Assembly: GCA_963838015.1 (NCBI GenBank)
Contig: CAWIPG010000007.1
Coordinates: forward strand, 114,867 to 178,866
Length of the DNA: 64,000 nt
Origin: an uncultured Acidobacteriaceae bacterium
GTDB lineage: Bacteria > Acidobacteriota > Terriglobia > Terriglobales > Acidobacteriaceae
Direction: 5' to 3'
How positions within the stretch are numbered: the first letter of the stretch is position 1; every line of letters begins with the position of its first letter. Positions 16,043-54,989 of this stretch are shown here, in pieces. The notes under the pieces are model-generated. The model ran no database searches. It had not been told where the DNA came from and saw only the letters and a program-made list of their open reading frames with translations. Both the position numbers and the translations under genes were made by a program.

Positions 16043-16132
16043 TGGCGGAGGGAGAGGGATTCGAACCCCCGGTACCCTTTCAGGTACAGCGGTTTTCAAG
16101 ACCGCCTGTTTCAACCACTCACACATCCCTCC
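16043..16132 (-). tRNA. tRNA-Ser (anticodon UGA), CCA encoded
   Basis: Minus strand GGAGGGATGTGTGAGTGGTTGAAACAGGCGGTCTTGAAAACCGCTGTACCTGAAAGGGTACCGGGGGTTCGAATCCCTCTCCCTCCGCCA. It has a 7-bp acceptor stem, CTTGAAA anticodon loop, long variable arm and GTTCGAATC T-loop. Confidence 0.93.
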
Positions 16133-25205: not shown

Positions 25206-25820
25206 TTAAGGGCGAGTTAGGGTTCCTGATGCAACCACGTCGATATCGACCGATTCGTTCACTCGCAAAAATAATGTGCTCGGATTTTTCATCCCCCAAT
25301 TCACGTAAGGCACTGCGAAGTGAAGGGTCGCGGTCCAGTGATCGGTAGTCATCTCAACTTCGGCTGGGACTGTTATTTCATGGTCCGATCCGTGGATGTT
25401 GAAAATTCCGTGGACCTTCACGGAAGACTTCCCTTGCGGCAACATGGTTCCATCAACGCGATCGGGGCGGAATGTGATTTCTGGATAGCGATCGCTCTCC
25501 AGCACTTCGCGATGCATTTTCCGGTCGCGCATACTGGTGCCGCTATCGCCGCTCTTGGCATCCACGACAATTTCGCCCGAGAGTTTCCGTGAAGCTGGAT
25601 CAAGTTGTAGAGAGCCACGCAGCAAATGAAATGTCCCGTGAACCGTATGGAGCACGTCGCCGAGTGTGAAAGCAACGGCGGTGTGCTGAGGATCCAGCTG
25701 GAACGCCACATCCTGCGCCGCAGCGGCAATGATCGCGAGCGCGAGAAATAAAATCGCCGCCAGGGACGAACGGCGCACCCGATCTCGGAGAAATCCCTGC
25801 ATCCGTCCCATCATTATCAT
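25206..25820 (-). CDS. YceI family (lipid/polyisoprenoid-binding) periplasmic protein
   Basis: Signal peptide, HTAVAFTLG...VHGTF...DSGTSMRDRKMHREVLESDRYPEITF. Confidence 0.75.
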   Translation of the reverse strand: MIMMGRMQGFLRDRVRRSSLAAILFLALAIIAAAAQDVAFQLDPQHTAVAFTLGDVLHTVHGTFHLLRGSLQLDPASRKLSGEIVVDAKSGDSGTSMRDRKMHREVLESDRYPEITFRPDRVDGTMLPQGKSSVKVHGIFNIHGSDHEITVPAEVEMTTDHWTATLHFAVPYVNWGMKNPSTLFLRVNESVDIDVVASGTLTRP

Positions 25821-25823
25821 GAG

Positions 25824-26981
25824 TTATGCAGTCAGCAGTCCCCACCCCAGAGTGAGCCCGTCGAGAGCGAGATGGAATGGCGAAAGACTTCCCACGTGCA
25901 AGGCGAGCAGTCTACGAAAAATTTCAGGCCGCTGACGAAAAATCTGAAGAACGCGCCGCTGCAAACGGGGCCGTCCGTCAAGCAGGAGCATCAACCGCGC
26001 CATCAACAGCGGACGCCGCGCCAGACGGCGGTGCGCAGCATGATATCCAGCGAGGCTACCCGAGGCGAGGCGGGTTGCCAGTACAGTCGCCTGGCGAAAC
26101 GCCAGGCCAAGACCTTCGCCGGTAATCGCATCGACCGTGCCGGAAGCGTCGCCGATCAGCGCAATATTTTTTCGCCACACACGCTTCAGCTTGCGATTGG
26201 CAGAGAGCGCACCCCGTTCAGTTGAGACGGCCTCAGCCCCGCGAAGCCGGGCATTAAGCTCGGGCAATGCGCGCAAGGATTCTTCCAGGCGAAGTTGTGG
26301 GTTGCGCGAGGCTACCGCGATGCAGACCTGCTCATTGTTCACCGCAGTGGCATAACCCTGAGCGTGCTCGCCCCAATAGATTTCCATGCGGTCGGTCCAG
26401 GGCGGAATGCGATAGTGTCGGCGAAAAGCGTACCGGATGCCAGTTTGCGAGCAGGCGTCGAGCTTCGCCCAGCGGCGGACTCTTGAGTTGACGCCATCGG
26501 CGCCAATAATCCAGCGGGTGCGAATCGCGCGCTTTCCCAGATGGACTTCCTGACTTGAACTCGAGCTTCCCAGACTTGAAATTCCAGTGACTGCGCTCTG
26601 CCAAAGTAGATCAATCCCCAGCTCGGCGGCGCGTTCGATCATGATGCGATGCAGTACCGTTCGGCGAATTGAGAGGCCGCAGCTATTGCCAGAAAAGGGT
26701 GCTCCTGCTGACAACTCGGAACCGAGAAAGCGCACGCCGCGAAGTGGGCACGCCTCTGCCGCAGGCACGGCAATGCCCAGCTGTTCCAGCGCCGCAATCG
26801 CATCCGGCATCAGCGCTTCACCGCAGGCCTTGTCAATCGGAGGCTTGGCGCCGTCGGCGACCAGAACTCGCAACCCCTGCTGGCGGGCGGCAATTGCTGC
26901 CGCCAGTCCGGCCGGACCGCCGCCGATCACGAATACATCTGTCGAATCTGTCGAATCGGGCAAACCCCGCGCCCTCACCAT
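25824..26981 (-). CDS. FAD-dependent oxidoreductase (geranylgeranyl-reductase / aromatic hydroxylase-like)
   Basis: VFVIGGGPAGLAAAI, GADGVNSRVR and IGDASGTVDAITGEG. Overlaps the PKS gene by 7 nt. Confidence 0.8.
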   Translation of the reverse strand: MVRARGLPDSTDSTDVFVIGGGPAGLAAAIAARQQGLRVLVADGAKPPIDKACGEALMPDAIAALEQLGIAVPAAEACPLRGVRFLGSELSAGAPFSGNSCGLSIRRTVLHRIMIERAAELGIDLLWQSAVTGISSLGSSSSSQEVHLGKRAIRTRWIIGADGVNSRVRRWAKLDACSQTGIRYAFRRHYRIPPWTDRMEIYWGEHAQGYATAVNNEQVCIAVASRNPQLRLEESLRALPELNARLRGAEAVSTERGALSANRKLKRVWRKNIALIGDASGTVDAITGEGLGLAFRQATVLATRLASGSLAGYHAAHRRLARRPLLMARLMLLLDGRPRLQRRVLQIFRQRPEIFRRLLALHVGSLSPFHLALDGLTLGWGLLTA

Positions 26982-28069
26982 TCCAGAAGTATCAGCTCAG
27001 AACAAAAGCCGGGTCCCATTGCGGCAAGCAGACCCAGCGTTCCCGGTTCAGGGCGCCGGTTTTTCATCACGTCTTCCAACACGCACAACACCGATGCGGA
27101 AGAAAGATTTCCCACCTTGCGCAGGCAATCCCAAGAGGCATCGAGCTGCCCGTTGTGCAATCCGAGCGCGTCGGCCGATGCATCGAGCACCTTCGGTCCG
27201 CCGGTGTGCAGAACGAAGCTCTTCAGATCGCTTCGCTGGCGGCCGTTGTCGGCCAGAAACGCGTCCACGTCCCGCCCCAGATTTTTTCGAATCAGGGTGG
27301 GGACTTCCGTAGACAATATGATGCGGAAGCCTTTCTCAGAGATGTTCCAGCCCATCATGTCTTCTGTGCTGGGATAGAAGACCGAGCGGGTAGCGATAAT
27401 CTTAGGCCCGTGAATCTTAGCTCCGGGAATCGCGGGCTCGTGATTGTCATCGTCGACCGGTTGAAATTCTGAACCGGTCACAATCACAGCGGCAGCGCCG
27501 TCGGCGAAAAGTCCGGAGGAGATGAGGTTTGCGACCGACAAATCTTCGCGCTGCAGCGTGAGCGAGCAAAGCTCAACCGACACCAACGCCGCGGCCTGCT
27601 TGGGATAGGCGCGAACATAATCCGAGGCGCGCGCGATTCCGGCGGCGCCAGCTACGCATCCCAGGCCAAAAATTGGCGTGCGGCGAATGTTTTTGGGAAG
27701 ATTCATCCGGTTGATCAGCAGCGCGTCGATGGATGGGCTGGCGACTCCGGTGACCGTGGTGAAGAGCAACGCTCCCAAGTCCTCCGGCCTAAGTCCGGCA
27801 TTCTGCAACGCGACGCAGAGGGCCTGCTCACCCAACTCCTGCGCGACCCTGATCCAAATGTCGTTGGCCTGTCCCCAGGTTTTGATATCGACATACTGCT
27901 CGGCAGGGACCGCGAGGTAGCGGCCGTCCACGGTTACGTTGCGGTGCAGCCGCGCCAGCAGGAGAGGGTTTTTGAGTTGGTCTCCCCAATAATCCTGGAG
28001 CCGGTCGAGTAGAACCTTCTGGGTATAGTAATGCTTCGGAAAAGCGCTTGCAGCGCTTGCAATCCTCAT
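26975..28069 (-). CDS. type III polyketide synthase (chalcone/stilbene synthase family)
   Basis: Catalytic Cys in FGLGCVAGAAG, His in VLHTGGPKV and Asn in GNLSSASV. Length 364 aa. Confidence 0.9.
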   Translation of the reverse strand: MRIASAASAFPKHYYTQKVLLDRLQDYWGDQLKNPLLLARLHRNVTVDGRYLAVPAEQYVDIKTWGQANDIWIRVAQELGEQALCVALQNAGLRPEDLGALLFTTVTGVASPSIDALLINRMNLPKNIRRTPIFGLGCVAGAAGIARASDYVRAYPKQAAALVSVELCSLTLQREDLSVANLISSGLFADGAAAVIVTGSEFQPVDDDNHEPAIPGAKIHGPKIIATRSVFYPSTEDMMGWNISEKGFRIILSTEVPTLIRKNLGRDVDAFLADNGRQRSDLKSFVLHTGGPKVLDASADALGLHNGQLDASWDCLRKVGNLSSASVLCVLEDVMKNRRPEPGTLGLLAAMGPGFCSELILLEW

Positions 28070-28273: not shown

Positions 28274-29350
28274 CTAAGGCAACACTGCGAGCGAGGTAAT
28301 ACTGTTGCCGAGAGGATATGTGGCAATCGCATTCAAACTTCCACTATCGTTGCCAAAGGCCTGCAGTCCTCCTGAGGTTTGATTTCCCACATACAGGTAT
28401 TTTCCGTTCGGATCCATCGCGAGGAAACTCGGCTGCGCTTCGGAGGCAAAGGGAGAGTCCTGAACTGCCGCGGGAAATCCAGTGCCGGACGTAATCGAGT
28501 AGGTCCCGATGTTGCCGGAGCCTTGATTCGCCACGTAGAGAAATTGCCCCTTTGGATCCAGGATTAGGGCAACCGGGTGCTGGCTGGTATCAGCCAGCGG
28601 AGAGCCTGGGACTGTGGTCAAGGCGCCGTTCGATCCAACCGTGTAGATGGAGAGCGAGTTTCCAATCCCGCCGTTGGCCGCGTAGAGATAGGTTCCGGTC
28701 GGATCGATGACCATCCCGGTGGGGCTGCTATCAGCGGTAAAGGTCAGGGAAACCGCACTGGAAGAGATGACGCCGGCAGTGATGCTGAAGACTGCAATCA
28801 CTCCGCTCGGCTGGTTTGCGGCGCTAATGTAGAGGAAGTTGCCCGAGGGCGACAACACCATGTCGGTGAGCGACAAGTTGGTGCCAAATGGAGAACCGGC
28901 CACCGGCGATAGCGCGCCGCTACTGCTATCAATCGAGAACACTGAAATGTTGTTCGACAGCGCATTGGCGACATAGAGGTAAGCGCCGGCTGTGTCCACG
29001 AGCAATTGCTGAGGCCCTGTGCCCACCAGCGTTCGGGGAAATATCTCGCTCAACGTGCCGTTGCTGTTGATCGTGAACAGGGAAACATCGTTTTCATCCT
29101 GGCCGGGATTTGCCGCATATAAGAATTTTCCGGAGGGATGAAGCGCCACGGAGCGGACTCCGTCGCCCACCGTATACGGGCTTCCCGAAAGCTGCGTGAG
29201 AACGCCGGAGTAGGGATCTTCCCGGAAGGCCGCAATCTGATTAGCATCGGGAATGGCAGCATAGACGAAGTGACTCGATGTGGCGCCGCAACTCACGCAA
29301 CCCGCGATACTCGCGAGGACAAACCCTACCACCAATGCTTTTTGAAGCAT
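28274..29350 (-). CDS. 7-bladed beta-propeller lactonase family lipoprotein
   Basis: Lipobox SIAGC. Repeated ...LYVAN...ISVF/IYT...G.L blades. Confidence 0.75.
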   Translation of the reverse strand: MLQKALVVGFVLASIAGCVSCGATSSHFVYAAIPDANQIAAFREDPYSGVLTQLSGSPYTVGDGVRSVALHPSGKFLYAANPGQDENDVSLFTINSNGTLSEIFPRTLVGTGPQQLLVDTAGAYLYVANALSNNISVFSIDSSSGALSPVAGSPFGTNLSLTDMVLSPSGNFLYISAANQPSGVIAVFSITAGVISSSAVSLTFTADSSPTGMVIDPTGTYLYAANGGIGNSLSIYTVGSNGALTTVPGSPLADTSQHPVALILDPKGQFLYVANQGSGNIGTYSITSGTGFPAAVQDSPFASEAQPSFLAMDPNGKYLYVGNQTSGGLQAFGNDSGSLNAIATYPLGNSITSLAVLP

Positions 29351-29611
29351 CCGTTACTCCTGAGAGAATTTGAAAGCGAAGAACAACAATAATACCGGGA
29401 CGCCGCCAAACCGGCATTTGAACACAACATTCCTATCATACGGGCAGCACAAGAAAAAAGGGAGGTTGCACCAGGCACGATCCTGCGGCCTGACGGCTGG
29501 AAGGTTCTCAGGTGCTTAATTGAAGCGCTGGCCCCTTGCAGCCTACTGGTGCGATGCGCTGCCGCTTGACTCAGGTTGCACGCGGACGGCGGGAGGGTGA
29601 ACCGGAACGGC

Positions 29612-29893
29612 CTACTCGGCTCCGCCCGCGATTGATGGCACCAGCAGGACTTCGTCCCCATCGCTGAAGACATATCCCGGACCGCCGAGGAAGCGGATGT
29701 CTTCTTCATTCACATAAATGTTAAGGAAGCGGCGAACCTGCCCGGCCTCGTCGCGCAGGTGCGGCTTCAACTCCGGAAATTTCTCGTCGAGGGCCGAGAA
29801 AAGCTCTGACAGGTTCGTGGCTGTGCACGCAATCGAGCTTGTGCCAGCCGTGTGCCGCCGCAGTGCGGTTGGAATTTGTACGGTGATTGCCAT
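29612..29893 (-). CDS. MoaD/ThiS-family sulfur-carrier protein (MetO-like), C-terminus ...AGGAE
   Basis: 93 aa beta-grasp-size protein ending DGDEVLLVPSIAGGAE. ATG 29893 is preceded by GAGGT. Directly downstream of the ThrC-like gene. Confidence 0.75.
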   Translation of the reverse strand: MAITVQIPTALRRHTAGTSSIACTATNLSELFSALDEKFPELKPHLRDEAGQVRRFLNIYVNEEDIRFLGGPGYVFSDGDEVLLVPSIAGGAE

Positions 29894-29906
29894 AGAAAGT
29901 ACCTCA

Positions 29907-29980
29907 GCGGCTAAAGCCGTCAATCAAGATAAGCCAGTTATCGCAGCGGTGAACCGCTGCGCCACCCAAAATCAAGCGCG
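29907..29980. repeat. 74-nt hairpin-containing repeat, copy 1
   Basis: GCGGCTAAAGCCG...ATCGCAGCGGTGAACCGCTGCGCCACCCAAAATCAAGCGCG. A near-identical copy lies at 46791-46866. Confidence 0.8.
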
Positions 29981-29987
29981 AATTCTC

Positions 29988-31349
29988 TTATGCTCCTACC
30001 GAGGCTGCCGCTTCCTGGGCAACCTCAACAGTGTCCAGCTTTTCGTTCAAATACTTTTCAAATTCAGCGAGCTTGGGTGCGATCGGCCGTTCTTCCTCAT
30101 AAACACCTGAGAGCACGTCGGTCGTCTTCAAACCGTTTCCTGTGATGCATAGCACGGTCGTCTCCTCGGGAAGGATGCGGTCTTGCCGGTAGAGCTTGCC
30201 CGCCGTGCCCACGGTCACGCCGCCGGCAGTCTCGGTGAAGATGCCTTCGGTTTCCGCCAGCAGGCGGATCGAATCGATTACTTCCGGATCACTCACGTCC
30301 TCGCTCCATCCGCCGCTCTGCTTGATAGTCTTGATCGCATAATGGCCGTCGGCGGGATTGCCGATGGCGAGCGAGCGCGCAATCGTCGTCGGTTTCTGCG
30401 GCTCGATCTCGGAGCTGCCGGTCTTCACCGCAGTCGAAATCGGAGAGCATCCGGTAGCCTGCGCGCCGAAGAACTTTACGGGTTTTTCCTCGACCAAGCC
30501 CAGCTTGGCGAGTTCATCGAACGCCTTCTTGATTTTGATAATCAATGACCCGCCCGCCATCGGGCAAACTACGTTGTCCGGCAGCCGCCAGCCCAGTTGC
30601 TCAGCGATTTCGAAGCCCACGGTCTTCGACCCCTCGGAGTAGTAAGGCCGCAGGTTCACGTTGACGAAGCCCCAGCGCCGCTCTTCGGCAATCTGCGAGC
30701 ACAGCCGATTCACCTGATCGTAGTTGCCCGCGATGCGTACCACGTTCGCGCCGAAGACTTGCGTGCCAAGAATTTTTGCGGGTTCGAGATCGGAGGGAAT
30801 AAAGATCCAAGCTTTGAGACCAAGCCGCGCCGCGTGCGCGGCGACGGCATTCGCCAGGTTTCCAGTGGATGAACAAGCGACCGTATCGAAGCCGAAAGCC
30901 TTGGCCTGCGCCAGCGCGACGGCCACTACACGGTCTTTGAAACTCAGCGTGGGCAGGCAGACGGCGTCATTCTTTAAATAGAGATTCTGCGTGGACTTCG
31001 TGTCGCTCTGTGCGCCGAACAACCGCTCCGCCAGCCGAGGCGCCTGGATCAGCGGCGTGAAGCCGACCGGCAGGCGCGGCTCAAAACCCGCCGGCAGCGG
31101 CAGCAACTCGGCGTAGCGCCACATGTTCGTCGGCCGCTGCGCGATGCGCTCGTGGCTGAAAGTTCCTTGGGCAATCGCGGATCGGATTACGTCGTAGTCG
31201 TATGCAACTTCGAGAGGAGAGAAACACTCGTCGCAGATGGAGCGGGGCTGGTTTCCCCAGCTTCGGCAGCATTCCCGGCAGCGCAATTCGTAGGGGGCTT
31301 GATTGTACGAAGCTTGATTGTCCTGAGAACGACCGTCGTAATTCGACAT
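29988..31349 (-). CDS. threonine synthase-family PLP enzyme with N-terminal zinc ribbon (MetM-like candidate)
   Basis: CRECCRSW...CDECFSPLEV zinc ribbon. PLP lysine context PTLSFKDRVV. ThrC-like throughout. Confidence 0.8.
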   Translation of the reverse strand: MSNYDGRSQDNQASYNQAPYELRCRECCRSWGNQPRSICDECFSPLEVAYDYDVIRSAIAQGTFSHERIAQRPTNMWRYAELLPLPAGFEPRLPVGFTPLIQAPRLAERLFGAQSDTKSTQNLYLKNDAVCLPTLSFKDRVVAVALAQAKAFGFDTVACSSTGNLANAVAAHAARLGLKAWIFIPSDLEPAKILGTQVFGANVVRIAGNYDQVNRLCSQIAEERRWGFVNVNLRPYYSEGSKTVGFEIAEQLGWRLPDNVVCPMAGGSLIIKIKKAFDELAKLGLVEEKPVKFFGAQATGCSPISTAVKTGSSEIEPQKPTTIARSLAIGNPADGHYAIKTIKQSGGWSEDVSDPEVIDSIRLLAETEGIFTETAGGVTVGTAGKLYRQDRILPEETTVLCITGNGLKTTDVLSGVYEEERPIAPKLAEFEKYLNEKLDTVEVAQEAAASVGA

Positions 31350-31424
31350 CGGGCTACTCGCTTTCTAAGTTCAGCAGCGAATAGCTGAGGACGAGCCCGC
31401 AAAAAGCGCCCTAAAACAGAACGG

Positions 31425-31454
31425 CCTCTTTTCCCAGGAAATAGGGAAAAGAGG
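31425..31454 (-). terminator. riboswitch expression-platform terminator hairpin
   Basis: Perfect 11-bp stem CCTCTTTTCCC / GGGAAAAGAGG, followed on the minus strand by CCGTTCTGTTTT. Confidence 0.6.
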
Positions 31455-31489
31455 TCGGAATGCAAATAAAAATGAAGCTCGCATCCGAA

Positions 31490-31601
31490 TCTCATGTTCC
31501 CCGTTTCCGGGCGGGAGTTGGCACCTGGCGGTCGGGATATATGATCCCGATCCGGTTGCCGTGGCGTCACAGGGCTCGTCCCTCAGCCACTCTGCATGAA
31601 A
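31490..31601 (-). promoter_or_regulatory. SAM-I (S-box) riboswitch
   Basis: Minus strand reads TTTCATGCAGAGTGGCTGAGGGACGAGCCCTGTGACGCCACGGCAACC...CCAGGTGCCAACTCCCGCCCGGAAACGGGGAACATGAGA. This matches the conserved SAM-I core (AGAG, GAGGGA, GGCCC-like, GGCAACC, GGTGCCAA, closing P1 CATGA). Confidence 0.85.
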
Positions 31602-31916
31602 TTCTGTCTGCCCCGAAGGGCAAACTTGTCTCCACGATGCTACACGGGAGGGTGGGGTTCGTCAATAGAGTAGTGGATCGGTGGATTTTGGTAGCAGTGC
31701 AGCCTACGAAAATGCCTAAATGAGGACAGCCACCGTCGACTGCCCAAGTTCGAGCGAAGCTCGATTCCTTTCCCGGCATCACCAAATACACTAAGCTGCC
31801 CCACACTTCCCGATCTCGCAAAGTCCTGCGACTTTGCAAAGCTCCGAAGCATGAGGCAGCTTTAGTTCCCCAAGTTTTTCAAGCCCGTAAGCCGAGCTTC
31901 TTTTCCCGTTCCTTAG

Positions 31917-46616: not shown

Positions 46617-46790
46617 GGGAATTATCCTTTCTGGATTATGAAAGCTTGTTGGGAACGCTGAGACAGAACGACATGCGCACACGTCGGCGCGGCTTCGTTC
46701 AGGATTGCAGCTTGCTGGTTAGCGTACGGCAGTCATAGGCAAGGAGTACAGGGTACTTCGTTCGCGGCTGAATATCAATGAAAAGTGGCG

Positions 46791-46866
46791 GCGGCTAAAG
46801 CTGGTTCTGAAAACAAGCCACTCATCGCAGCGCCTAAAGCGCTGCGCCACCCAAAATCAAGCCGCG
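46791..46866. repeat. 74-nt hairpin-containing repeat, copy 2
   Basis: GCGGCTAAAGCTG...ATCGCAGCGCCTAAAGCGCTGCGCCACCCAAAATCAAGCCGCG, downstream of the htrA-like stop. Confidence 0.8.
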
Positions 46867-52057: not shown

Positions 52058-52129
52058 GGCAAGAGCCGTATGCGGGAAATCCGCCCGTACGGATCTGTGC
52101 GGGGGGTACGGAGCAATCCGTATCCCTAC
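51360..52129 (+). mobile_element. group II intron 3' fragment (domain IV ORF remnant, domains V and VI)
   Basis: Domain V GAGCCGTATGCGGGAAATCCGCCCGTACGGATC at 52063-52095, followed by a domain VI-like hairpin ending ...CCCTAC at 52129. Confidence 0.75.
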
Positions 52130-52377
52130 CGCGACTCCCTTACACCCCGTGCGCAGCACGGCTAAAAACCTCAACCCCGCAAACCAGCTCACGGGAGCGC
52201 TACAACCTCACCCTCACCGTGCCGGAATCGCCACGCTTCCGGGTAGGGATCGGCGGCAGATCGAAACCGGCAAGCGCCGCTAATCGGACCCGGATCACGG
52301 CGCGGATCGGCGTGACCTGCTCCCCTCTTTCCGAACAAACCTGAGTATGATTTTGTCGAAGGAAAGGGGAAGGGAGT

Positions 52378-52653
52378 ATGTCGAAGAGCAATCACACCGA
52401 GGCGCAGATGATCGGGGCGCTGAAGCAACTGGAGGCGGGGCGCAAGGCGGAGGACGTGGCGCGTGAAGTAGGGGTGTCAAAGCACACGATCTATGCCTGG
52501 AAGGCGAAGTACGGAGGGATGGACGTGAGCGAGGCGCAAGAAGCGAAGCAGTTACGCGACGAAAACACGCGACTCAAGAAGCTGGTAGTGGACCTGAGTC
52601 TGGACAAAGAGATGCTGAAGGCGGTGATCGCAAAAAACGGATGGAGCTCGTAG
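52378..52653 (+). CDS. IS3-family transposase OrfA (HTH)
   Basis: MSKSNHTEAQMIGALKQLEAGRKAEDVAREVGVSKHTIYAWKAKY plus a leucine zipper. Slippery A-AAA-AAC at 52632-52638 for the -1 frameshift into OrfB. Confidence 0.9.
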   Translation: MSKSNHTEAQMIGALKQLEAGRKAEDVAREVGVSKHTIYAWKAKYGGMDVSEAQEAKQLRDENTRLKKLVVDLSLDKEMLKAVIAKNGWSS

Positions 52654-53528
52654 ACCAGCGGGCGGATGCGAACTGGCTGCGGAGCAAGTATGCAGCGAGC
52701 CAGCGCCGGGTTTGCGGGCTGATGGGGATAGCGGTAGCGAGTTACTACTACCGAACGACACGCAGCGATGAGCCGCTGCGCACGCGGCTGGTGGAGTTGG
52801 CGCGAGAGAAGCCGCGCTTCGGGTATCGACGGCTACATGTATTGCTGGGCCGCTCGGGAGAGCAAGTGAACCACAAGCGGGTGCATCGCGTGTACCGGGA
52901 AGCGGGGTTGATGTTGCGGCGGAAAAAGCGCAAGCATTGTGTACGCGAGGGAAGGCCGCTGGTGGCGCGGACTACGGCGAACCAGGAGTGGGCGTTGGAT
53001 TTCGTGCACGACGCGGTGGAATGCGGACGGGCAATCCGGGTGCTGAGCGTGGTGGACGCCTACACGCGAGAGTGTCTGGCTTTGGAAGTGGATACGAGCT
53101 TTGCCAGCCGCAGAGTGACGCGCGTGCTGGAGGCGATCATCGCCGAGCGTGGGATGGCGGGAGCGATTCGCTGCGACAACGGGCCGGAGTTCACCAGCCG
53201 GCATTTTCTGGCATGGGCAGTGGAGAGGCAGATCGAGGTGATCCACATTCAGCCGGGCAAGCCGACGCAGAACGGGCGGATCGAAAGTTTTCACGGACGG
53301 CTGCGGGAAGAGTGTTTGCGCGTGAGCTGGTTTCAAAATCTGTTCGATGCGCGGCGCAAGATCGCGGCGTGGCACAAAGAGTACAACGAGGAGCGACCGC
53401 ACAGCAGCCTGGGATACCGCACGCCGAAGGAATTCGCGGCGGCGCAGGCGGCAGACTTCTACACAGCTGAGCGAGAGGCAAGGGACTGCAGTCGGAAGGT
53501 GTTACGAAACCCACTGGAAAATCGATAA
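52641..53528 (+). CDS. IS3-family transposase OrfB (DDE), 3' end displaced by IS insertion
   Basis: WALDFVHD...VVDAYTRE...DNGPEFTS...YNEERPHSSLGY. The last ~10 codons are read from the inserted IS1182-like end. The native tail resumes at 54990 and stops at about 55070. Confidence 0.85.
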   Translation: MELVDQRADANWLRSKYAASQRRVCGLMGIAVASYYYRTTRSDEPLRTRLVELAREKPRFGYRRLHVLLGRSGEQVNHKRVHRVYREAGLMLRRKKRKHCVREGRPLVARTTANQEWALDFVHDAVECGRAIRVLSVVDAYTRECLALEVDTSFASRRVTRVLEAIIAERGMAGAIRCDNGPEFTSRHFLAWAVERQIEVIHIQPGKPTQNGRIESFHGRLREECLRVSWFQNLFDARRKIAAWHKEYNEERPHSSLGYRTPKEFAAAQAADFYTAEREARDCSRKVLRNPLENR

Positions 53529-54989
53529 CAAGGATGCGAAGATGCCCTGCAAGCGAGGTCATTCATGGCCTATATCGAGGGCGAGCAGCGCAGTCAACAC
53601 AGCTTGTTTCCTACCACGTTGGACGAACTGATTTCAGAGGATCATGTCTGCCGTGTGATCGAGGCGTTTGTGGGCCGGCTGGACATGGCGAAGCTGGGTT
53701 TCATTCGCTCCGAACCGGCTGAGACCGGACGTCCTGGCTACGACCCGCGCGATCTGCTGAAGCTGTATTTGTACGGGTATCTGTGGCAGATTCGGTCCTC
53801 GCGCCGGTTGGAAACCGAGTGCCAGCGCAATGTGGAAGTGATGTGGCTGCTAGGGCGACTGGTTCCCGATTACAAATCGATTGCTGAGTTCCGGCGGATG
53901 CATCGTGAGGCGGTAGCCGAAGCGGGAGCGGAACTTGTGCGTTTCGCGCGCTCTGTGGGATTGGTCCGTGGGGAGTGGGTAGCGATCGATGGTTCGAAGT
54001 TCCAGTCGGTGAGTAGTGTGGATCGGGTCCGCGAGCGGGAGGCGCTGAAGCGTTACCTGGATCAGGTGGAGCGAGCCGACGAAGAAAACGAAGTAGTGAT
54101 TGATGCGAGCGCGGTGGCCGACGCTCTGGAAAAACTAAAGAGCGACCCGGAGCCAGAGGCAGCCTTTATGAAGATTGGACGGCAACTGACGCCTGGCTAC
54201 AACGTACAAACCGCCGTCGATGCGAAACATGGGCTGATCGTGGCTCACAAAGTCACCACCGATGCGAACGATCAACGCATGCTGTTGCCCATGGCGGAAG
54301 CGGCAAAGCAGGCGGTGGGTTCACCGGCCTCTCTGAACGTGATCGCGGATGGCGGCTACTCCAACGGCGAGCAGTCGGAAACCTGCGAGTCCCAAGGTAT
54401 CGTGCCCTACGTGCCTCCCAAGCGCACGGTGAACAACCACGGTGATGGCAAACTATTCGACCGCACTGAGTTCGTCTATGACGAAGCCACAGATACCTTC
54501 CGCTGCCCGGCAGGCCAGACGCTTTGGCGTAAGCAGTTCTCTAAAAAGGATCGCACCGTGACGTATACACCCCGACGAAAAGTCTGTGGACCGTGTGCAC
54601 TCAAAGCGCGTTGCACGCTAGGCCCGCGGCGCTACGTTTCTCGACACCTTCATGAGGGAGCCCTTCAGCGGATGCAGCAACGCACCACACCGGAGGTCAT
54701 GAGGCTGCGAGCAGCGACCGTGGAGCTTCCTTTCGCCGCGCTAAAGTATCGTATCTTCGGACACCCACGCTTTTTGTTGCGCGGCCTCGCAGGAGCACAG
54801 ACGGAGATCAACTTGGCGACGTTGGTTTACAACCTGAAACGAATGCTGAATGTACTAGGTGCCTGTGAGCTCCGAGATGCTCTAACGGTCTGAGCGAGCA
54901 TCGCTCTAGACTGCCACACCTCAAAGAGAAATATTTTGGATCAACCCATCTCCCGCGACGATTTTTCTTGACGCTTTCGTAACACCTTC
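53495..54989 (+). mobile_element. IS1182-family insertion sequence nested in the IS3 element
   Basis: 15-nt terminal inverted repeats GAAGGTGTTACGAAA at both ends enclose a single transposase gene. Confidence 0.75.
53565..54893 (+). CDS. IS1182-family transposase
   Basis: MAYIEGEQRSQHSLFPTTLDELISEDHVCRVIEAFV...GRPGYDPRDLLKLYLYGYLWQIRSSRRLE...EVMWLLGRLVPDYKSIAEFRR. Confidence 0.85.
   Translation: MAYIEGEQRSQHSLFPTTLDELISEDHVCRVIEAFVGRLDMAKLGFIRSEPAETGRPGYDPRDLLKLYLYGYLWQIRSSRRLETECQRNVEVMWLLGRLVPDYKSIAEFRRMHREAVAEAGAELVRFARSVGLVRGEWVAIDGSKFQSVSSVDRVREREALKRYLDQVERADEENEVVIDASAVADALEKLKSDPEPEAAFMKIGRQLTPGYNVQTAVDAKHGLIVAHKVTTDANDQRMLLPMAEAAKQAVGSPASLNVIADGGYSNGEQSETCESQGIVPYVPPKRTVNNHGDGKLFDRTEFVYDEATDTFRCPAGQTLWRKQFSKKDRTVTYTPRRKVCGPCALKARCTLGPRRYVSRHLHEGALQRMQQRTTPEVMRLRAATVELPFAALKYRIFGHPRFLLRGLAGAQTEINLATLVYNLKRMLNVLGACELRDALTV

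Follow-up and report, generated by a model that had tools for sequence, protein, structure and literature searches.

Why should a gene that looks like one for threonine synthase (ThrC) stand behind a riboswitch for S-adenosylmethionine (SAM)? The question is raised by a pair of genes in a 64-kb stretch of DNA from an uncultured Acidobacteriaceae bacterium (contig CAWIPG010000007.1; this whole stretch is called the window below). Here a SAM-I (S-box) riboswitch precedes a gene for a ThrC-family enzyme, termed metM-like, which is followed by a gene for a small ThiS/MoaD-type sulfur carrier protein, termed metO-like (Table 1). We conclude that the locus is very probably a SAM-repressed homocysteine synthase operon of the MetM/MetO type. 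The original prediction, made from the letters alone, had argued for such a role in place of threonine synthesis. All the parts it described are present on the minus strand, and its end coordinate for the riboswitch was one base off.

The riboswitch is matched over its full length by the Rfam model RF00162 (model positions 1–108 of 108), well above the gathering threshold, and is the sole riboswitch that Rfam detects in the window. Between the aptamer and the ATG at 31349 lie 139 nt, in agreement with the well-formed S-box predicted about 140 nt upstream of the enzyme. By its score, its full four-helix aptamer, its placement in the 5′ leader and the alternative pairings of that leader, the element is a SAM-I riboswitch. 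Its sequence predicts that the leader binds SAM and that SAM lowers expression; that the gene behind it belongs to the methionine/SAM pathway is what we infer.

The enzyme matches Pfam PALP (E 8.7e-65) and scores 253.9 bits on the NCBIfam thrC model TIGR00260 (cut-off 167.1); annotation pipelines therefore label it threonine synthase. On the closest equivalog model, NF006050, it reaches 264.6, below the cut-off of 303. Its best match to solved ThrC structures has an E of 2.8e-45. The N-terminus carries a Cys4 zinc ribbon, CRECC-x11-CDEC, and in an alignment of 19 diverse homologues C24, C39 and C42 of this motif are invariant, as is K138 of the SFKDR motif, the lysine that binds pyridoxal 5′-phosphate (PLP). 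The ThrC-family enzyme with an N-terminal zinc ribbon is thus as originally described. Its named homologues point to Terriglobales near Candidatus Sulfotelmatobacter, and all are labelled threonine synthase. An exact look-up of the protein in the assemblies index gave no record.

Phylogeny separates the enzyme from its namesake. In a 61-row maximum-likelihood tree (quick IQ-TREE search, LG+C20, rooted on CysK/CysM), canonical ThrC forms one clade with a Shimodaira–Hasegawa-like approximate likelihood ratio test (SH-aLRT) value of 97, comprising Thermus 1UIM, Aquifex 2ZSJ and the canonical copies of two Nitrospirota loci, L061 and L073. The window enzyme falls into a separate 50-row clade (SH-aLRT 99), together with acidobacterial, cyanobacterial, Chloroflexota and Nitrospirota look-alikes and two actinobacterial homologues. 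It is not a member of the canonical ThrC clade that contains 1UIM and 2ZSJ, and its score stays under the NF006050 cut-off. This separation agrees with the suggestion that a thrC-type label is probably wrong for this gene, and misannotation of MetM has already been stated in GapMind 2026. The 50-row clade includes a homologue from Micromonospora coriariae (locus L081) with a SAM riboswitch directly upstream (57 bits with the clade model described below) and no carrier within 5 kb. When the actinobacterial representative P0129 served as the seed of a search, the best 120 hits were all from Micromonosporaceae, and the cluster names include no Streptomyces entry.

The Streptomyces precedent named in the original prediction does exist (Hasebe et al. 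2024, cited by both PMC13759103 and PMC12172450). According to the summary in GapMind 2026 (PMC13759103), which cites Hasebe et al. 2024, MetO, Mec, MoeZ and MetM of S. albulus constitute an experimentally supported route from O-phosphohomoserine to homocysteine, in which MetO needs Mec in order to mature. MetM is often misannotated as threonine synthase/ThrC (GapMind 2026, PMC13759103; bioRxiv 10.1101/2024.10.14.618325), and a SAM riboswitch lies upstream of S. albulus metM (PMC12172450). MetM is reported to share 51.6% identity with a Microcystis homologue that has a metO-like gene next to it (PMC12172450).

Gene linkage across phyla points the same way. At E < 1e-30, HMMER recovered 1,513 representatives across the library, and alignment of the full-length ones led to 80 loci from species-representative genomes (numbered L001 onwards). 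About 58 of these are acidobacterial; the others belong to Sumerlaeota, Marinimicrobia, Nitrospirota, Chloroflexota, two deltaproteobacterial lineages, Cyanobacteria, Planctomycetota and Methylomirabilota. With Rfam, a SAM riboswitch was found directly upstream in 8 of 13 sampled loci. A clade-specific covariance model built from those hits detects it in 51 of the 80, always immediately 5′ of the gene; it is missing from the cyanobacterial loci, from two of the three Nitrospirota loci and from some acidobacterial ones. Copies with a SAM riboswitch occur in Acidobacteriota, Chloroflexota, Planctomycetota, Sumerlaeota, deltaproteobacterial lineages and Actinomycetota. The window thus offers a non-actinobacterial example under SAM control, as had been proposed, but not an unusual one. 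A homologous carrier directly follows the enzyme gene in 70 of the 80 loci. Among the 10 with none are a truncated locus (L014) and a close relative, L008, which has an 82% identical enzyme and the riboswitch and no carrier recognizable by tblastn within 5 kb; loss or relocation of the carrier, or a faulty assembly, may explain this. Carrier linkage and riboswitch, together with a tree position outside ThrC, support a role in homocysteine formation rather than in threonine synthesis.

Recurrent neighbours, typed by NCBIfam and Pfam scans, point to the route from aspartate to O-phosphohomoserine and to carrier activation. Homoserine dehydrogenase directly follows the carrier in four close relatives (L009, L012, L032 and L057), aspartate kinase occurs in seven loci and asd in three. 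MoeB/MoeZ-like E1 genes are present in L059, L060, L064 and L077, and CysK/CysM genes in L065, L077 and L025. Prok-JAB peptidases were found in exactly three loci (L059, L065 and L077), the same three whose carriers have a fused NIL domain and need a cut after Gly-Gly. In two Nitrospirota loci a canonical ThrC is encoded a few hundred bases downstream, just 3′ of the look-alike and its carrier (L061, 2168–3268; L073, 6838–7929), and is followed by aspartate kinase. These copies are 363–366 residues long, score 320–328 bits on TIGR00260 and have no zinc ribbon. ThrC and look-alike therefore coexist, and the two loci provide a natural side-by-side comparison of both paralogues. As a separate observation, a single 437-residue open reading frame (ORF) in L041 (6267–7580) joins a MetO-like carrier (ThiS, residues 5–91) to a GHMP kinase with a ThrB-like PASSANLGCAFD motif, and is followed by aspartate kinase and asd. 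It is either a true fusion or an assembly read-through, and either way ties the carrier to the supply of O-phosphohomoserine.

The carrier itself fits the MetO/CysO type, having a beta-grasp ThiS/MoaD domain and a Gly-Gly motif. The 93-residue MoaD/ThiS-like protein that had been noticed after the enzyme is encoded by the ORF at 29612–29893 (minus strand) and matches Pfam ThiS (PF02597, 45 bits). Its best solved relative is Mycobacterium tuberculosis CysO (3DWG_C, E 1e-19), aligned over its full length to the final Gly-Gly, followed by 4N6E_B (E 1.5e-17, full length). The C-terminus reads PSIAGG-AE, two residues beyond Gly-Gly, and the gene product is therefore a pro-form. Among relatives the PSIAGG end is strongly conserved and the tail behind it varies freely. 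It is absent in the two nearest (L001 and L047), one or two residues long in many loci (AE, RR, SA, AQ and others), cysteine-containing in several (C, CC, CCR, SC) and a whole NIL domain in three (L059, L065 and L077). Adenylation requires a free glycine carboxylate, as is established for ThiS, MoaD and CysO; the Ala-Glu tail would therefore imply trimming by a JAMM peptidase encoded elsewhere, and tails ranging from none to long agree with such removal.

Several Acidobacteriaceae have MetO-like carriers that run on past Gly-Gly and, after a variable linker, into a conserved Cys-rich tail with the consensus CCSYCGQEECxCG[D] (Table 1), in which Pfam detects the ThiS domain only. Shorter cysteine ends (GGC, GGCC, GGCCR and GGSC) are found in other loci. 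One possibility is that the Cys-rich tail is a metal-binding or sulfur-relay peptide freed by the JAMM peptidase.

By homology with S. albulus MetM/MetO and M. tuberculosis CysM/CysO, the following chemistry may be proposed. The carrier would be made as the GG-AE pro-form, trimmed to its C-terminal Gly-Gly by a JAMM (Mec-type) peptidase encoded elsewhere, and adenylated and converted to the thiocarboxylate by an E1 of the MoeZ/MoeB type. The PLP enzyme is predicted to be an O-phosphohomoserine-dependent homocysteine synthase: it would eliminate phosphate from O-phospho-L-homoserine, and the carrier thiocarboxylate would attack the resulting intermediate. Homocysteine would then be released, probably via an acyl shift and hydrolysis by the same peptidase.

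The likeness to the S. albulus system, as far as its published summaries describe it (Hasebe et al. 2024, Appl Environ Microbiol 90:e01247-24), extends to the ThrC-like PLP enzyme, the ThiS/MoaD-type carrier made as a pro-form that requires a peptidase, the upstream SAM riboswitch and the pipeline label of threonine synthase. The window differs in its phylum, in the distance of its enzyme (about 50% identity to the nearest actinobacterial homologue compared), in the Ala-Glu that follows Gly-Gly, in the absence of linked Mec and MoeZ genes and in an expression platform of its own, and it is known from its sequence. M. tuberculosis CysM, CysO, Mec+ and MoeZ carry out thiocarboxylate-dependent cysteine synthesis from O-phosphoserine. 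That system likewise combines a carrier thiocarboxylate, a fold-type II PLP enzyme and a phosphorylated hydroxy-amino acid, and its carrier is close to ours. In the window, by contrast, the partner is of the ThrC family rather than CysM, the predicted substrate is one carbon longer, the predicted product is homocysteine, and control is by a SAM riboswitch. In 2011, Krishnamoorthy and Begley reportedly described protein-thiocarboxylate-dependent homocysteine synthesis by HcyS, HcyD, HcyF and MetY of Wolinella succinogenes. There, too, a carrier feeds homocysteine synthesis and has an extra residue past Gly-Gly, said to be removed by a JAMM metalloprotease; Wolinella, however, uses MetY, an O-acetylhomoserine sulfhydrylase of fold type I, whereas here a ThrC-like enzyme would act on O-phosphohomoserine. 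Trimming of the Ala-Glu tail thus has precedents, in the published need for Mec in S. albulus and in the HcyS-Ala/HcyD pair of Wolinella. Canonical ThrC (Thermus thermophilus 1UIM, Aquifex 2ZSJ) shares the fold, the PLP-lysine motif and probably the substrate O-phosphohomoserine with the window enzyme, but is without the N-terminal Cys4 ribbon, belongs to the separate clade and has no linkage to a carrier or SAM riboswitch.

That the enzyme is nonetheless a genuine or bifunctional threonine synthase, with SAM controlling the threonine branch and the carrier employed otherwise, appears very improbable. In plants, SAM activates threonine synthase, and repression at high SAM would be the wrong direction for balancing the branch point. 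The score above the thrC cut-off, the match to solved ThrC structures and the conserved PLP lysine all speak for this alternative, but the enzyme is phylogenetically apart from canonical ThrC, a canonical copy stands in the same locus in L061 and L073, and this reading would not explain why the gene is tightly linked to a CysO-type carrier in 70 of 80 loci. A further point in favour of the alternative is the 'moonlighting ThrC' of Microcystis aeruginosa, whose O-phosphohomoserine-dependent activity was read as threonine synthesis and to which threonine deaminase activity was also assigned (PMC12172450). Cyanobacterial homologues fall into the clade of the window enzyme and share the two-gene arrangement, the Microcystis protein itself being outside the tree set; their loci differ in having no SAM riboswitch, both in our scan and in PMC12172450. 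The Microcystis assays, moreover, gave a very low rate and were run without thiocarboxylated carrier, and cyanobacteria keep the canonical thrC2 (PMC12172450).

Two further alternatives accept a role in sulfur metabolism. The pair could make another sulfur compound via the thiocarboxylate, be it cysteine from O-phosphoserine or a thio-amino acid for a cofactor or natural product. Some S-box regulons do include cysteine and sulfur-assimilation genes, CysK/CysM genes occur in some related loci, and the closest solved relatives of the carrier are CysO, of cysteine synthesis, and the carrier in 4N6E, which we take to be a thiosugar-pathway complex. The enzyme, however, is in the ThrC family and not CysK/CysM, and the recurrent neighbours (hom, ask, asd and a ThrB-like kinase) make O-phosphohomoserine. 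In the window the pair has no linked biosynthetic cluster; the downstream gene for a type III polyketide synthase is not syntenic with the pair across phyla, and the characterized family member makes homocysteine according to the published summaries. We consider this alternative very improbable. The other, an O-phosphohomoserine sulfhydrylase that uses free sulfide in vivo, with a carrier that is dispensable or helpful only at low sulfide, is highly improbable. It would account for a window without carrier-activating genes, for the 10 of 80 loci without a carrier after the enzyme (L008 included, L014 being truncated) and for the Micromonospora locus, which has none within 5 kb. It is opposed by the carrier adjoining the enzyme in the other 70 loci, by the strong conservation of its PSIAGG end and by the presence, where loci are more complete, of dedicated genes for E1 and JAMM proteins; the published pathway, as GapMind 2026 summarizes it, counts MetO, MoeZ and Mec among its steps (PMC13759103).

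The MetM/MetO-type homocysteine synthase remains the best explanation, and some observations tell against it. The catalytic role of this and all acidobacterial members is predicted from sequence, and the proposed orthology to S. albulus MetM (UniProt A0A059WBP2) is indirect. It runs through actinobacterial homologues, one of which is about 50% identical to the window enzyme and another, from Micromonospora, has a SAM riboswitch, and through cyanobacterial ones with 53–57% identity, of which the Microcystis member is reported to be 51.6% identical to MetM. In vitro, the Microcystis enzyme behaved as a slow O-phosphohomoserine-dependent 'threonine synthase' with threonine deaminase activity, and its authors doubt a full MetM role there (PMC12172450). 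Finally, the 64-kb window has no JAMM peptidase, E1, thrB, hom or other met gene.

How would SAM be read out? The leader between aptamer and start codon can form a hairpin H1, predicted in the window and most close relatives, a terminator-like hairpin and two alternative structures that share a switch segment, D (Table 1). The terminator hairpin of the original prediction was recovered by a terminator scan at 31454–31425; it has 11 pairs followed by a U-rich stretch. Its stem is nearly invariant in 21 close relatives, and the double change seen in one of nine pairs is uninformative either way as a covariation test because of this near-invariance. The 5′ part of D can pair with the aptamer (31593–31571). 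RNAduplex gives this duplex −39.3 kcal/mol, and 22 of 25 relatives fall between −33 and −40 kcal/mol; this helix belongs to the unconstrained minimum-free-energy fold of the window leader, and the GGCUCGUCC core of D is nearly invariant among relatives. When the aptamer is enforced, D and arm E are predicted to form a 10-bp hairpin instead, and the unpaired fraction at −13 to +3 drops from 0.55 to 0.18. The D:E stem covaries between sub-clades (GCUAUUC/GAGUAGC here, GCCGCUC/GAGUGGC in L010), and accessibility of the start region falls in 17 of 23 relatives (median 0.51 to 0.35).

Since D pairs alternately with the aptamer or within the start-codon hairpin, we lean towards control of translation initiation. 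High SAM would fold the aptamer and switch the operon off: in SAM-free RNA the segment 31398–31376 would pair with the 5′ half of the aptamer, and once the aptamer is folded it would instead close the hairpin over the region just before the start codon. The conserved terminator-like hairpin might then cause pausing, terminate weakly or add a second layer at the level of transcription. This translational read-out is predicted from thermodynamic folding. Against it, six of the 23 relatives, all of one sub-clade, do not show the accessibility drop, and the terminator-like hairpin is expected to form whether the RNA folds freely or with the aptamer enforced. Regulated termination alone is a possible, though less likely, model, and a combination of translational and termination control takes up the remainder of our confidence. 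Simple transcription attenuation was set aside as the main mechanism: the classical antiterminator, between the 3′ strand of P1 and the 5′ strand of the terminator, appears in the minimum-free-energy folds of some relatives, not in that of the window.

Table 1. Coordinates of the operon, its leader and related features. Positions are those of the window unless a locus number is given.
Feature	Position	Strand	Evidence or remarks
metM-like gene	29988–31349	−	453 residues; ThrC-family fold-type II PLP enzyme with N-terminal Cys4 zinc ribbon
metO-like gene	29612–29893	−	93 residues from ATG; CysO-type ThiS/MoaD carrier; C-terminus PSIAGG-AE
SAM-I (S-box) aptamer	31489–31602	−	RF00162, 74.0 bits (gathering threshold 44.4), E 1.8e-15
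Aptamer segment AGAGUGGCUGAGGGACGAGCCC	31571–31593	−	J1/2 and 5′ side of P2; can pair with segment D (predicted anti-aptamer, SAM-free state)
Hairpin H1	31455–31488	−	between aptamer and terminator-like hairpin; predicted
Terminator-like hairpin CCUCUUUUCCC...GGGAAAAGAGG with U-rich tail	31399–31454	−	hairpin 31454–31425, tail 31424–31399; terminator scan
Switch segment D GGGCUCGUCCUCAGCUAUUCGCU	31376–31398	−	5′ part pairs with aptamer, 3′ part with arm E (predicted)
Purine-rich loop	31363–31375	−	contains GAAAG
Arm E AGCGAGUAGC and start codon	31347–31362	−	arm E 31362–31353, then CCG, then AUG 31349–31347
Promoter candidate, sigma-70-like, TTGACG-17-TAGCAT	31637–31665	−	consensus scan, 9/12 matches, consensus match only; about 35 nt upstream of aptamer
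REP-like repeat, about 75 nt	29905–29980		hairpin GCAGCG-N6-CGCUGC; in metM–metO spacer; strand not assigned
Carriers with Cys-rich tail	L024 6223–6627; L030 3560–4051; L035 6142–6627; L039 6250–6573; L040 6256–6582; L042 1219–1746		
ThiS-NIL fusion carrier and Prok-JAB peptidase	L059 6647–7653; L065 6257–6772, 8769–9191; L077 6270–6785, 8335–8736		

To characterize the surroundings, Pfam was applied to about 45 of the window's longer ORFs, which number roughly 55, and all six frames were scanned for the JAMM motif. The former revealed no further methionine, threonine or sulfur-carrier genes, and the latter no credible gene in any of the six frames. A NIL-domain third partner is absent, no ORF fitting into 29350–29612, and the leader offers no ORF that would fit a leader mini-ORF. 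The genes downstream on the same strand encode a lactonase-type beta-propeller lipoprotein, a type III polyketide synthase, an FAD (flavin adenine dinucleotide) monooxygenase and a YceI protein; the gene upstream encodes a protein without an assigned family. Because these neighbours are unrelated to methionine, threonine or sulfur carriers, the pair is a stand-alone two-gene operon, metM-like first and metO-like second, on one strand and with a spacer of 94 nt.

The spacer is filled by a repeat resembling repetitive extragenic palindromic (REP) elements. The repeat recurs in the same orientation, with about 80% identity, at 46790–46866 after an htrA-like gene; both copies directly follow the stop codon of a minus-strand gene (metM-like and htrA-like) and contain the hairpin GCAGCG-N6/7-CGCTGC. 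The nearest relative, L001, has a metM–metO spacer of only about 15 nt, and the repeat is absent from the nearest relatives. In a soil metatranscriptome, a relative's contig runs from the enzyme gene into the carrier gene; there, 20 different letters replace the repeat between the positions that match 29992 and 29893. The two genes are therefore co-transcribed in that relative, and the repeat here suggests a recent insertion in this genome, which may alter the relative expression of the carrier.

The window sequence was matched in soil and peat metagenomes only; two metatranscriptomes contain relatives only. In two metatranscriptome runs, from soil and wetland (X21 and X22), the contig depth over the aptamer (31494–31637) is roughly at least 10 times that of the coding region. 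Stable or terminated leader RNAs in relatives may be the cause, an interpretation confounded by the conservation of the aptamer across organisms and genes.

The window has other features besides the operon. The type III polyketide synthase, FAD monooxygenase and YceI genes, which have no connection with the pair, occupy 25206–28069 (minus strand); a gene family of type III polyketide synthase size is also found downstream in 14 related loci, there with TetR and ABC-transporter genes. A group II intron match (RF00029, 49.5 bits) at 52061–52135 (plus strand) lies beside two transposase genes (52641–54893, plus strand), one with rve-type integrase core domains and the other with DUF772/DDE_Tnp_1, and forms a small mobile-element patch with them. 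A tRNA-Ser gene (anticodon UGA) with a long variable arm is located at 16043–16132 (minus strand).

The pathway itself is not new, and the locus presents no new kind of biology. What it adds is a clean, minimal two-gene version, without the NIL, E1 and JAMM genes found in other phyla, and a testable design for the expression platform. It also indicates that the Streptomyces pathway of 2024 and its SAM control are widespread, as the literature already hints. A more far-reaching proposal would make MetM/MetO the sole homocysteine route of this Terriglobales lineage, with O-phosphohomoserine as the branch point between threonine and methionine as in plants, a two-layered SAM riboswitch gate and a carrier gated by the obligatory removal of Ala-Glu. 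The two layers would be the terminator-like pause hairpin and the long-range anti-aptamer helix of about 20 bp, whose release closes the start-codon hairpin. Taken as a whole, we regard this combination as rather doubtful. The Cys-rich CCSYCGQEECxCG tails that relatives carry at the position of Ala-Glu hint that cleaved carrier tails may have a function of their own. For annotation the consequence is direct: every homologue with a source name in two protein searches is labelled threonine synthase, yet these proteins most likely make homocysteine. Such mislabelling distorts the metabolic reconstruction of soil Acidobacteriota, which are abundant, for instance where methionine auxotrophy or sulfur flow is predicted.

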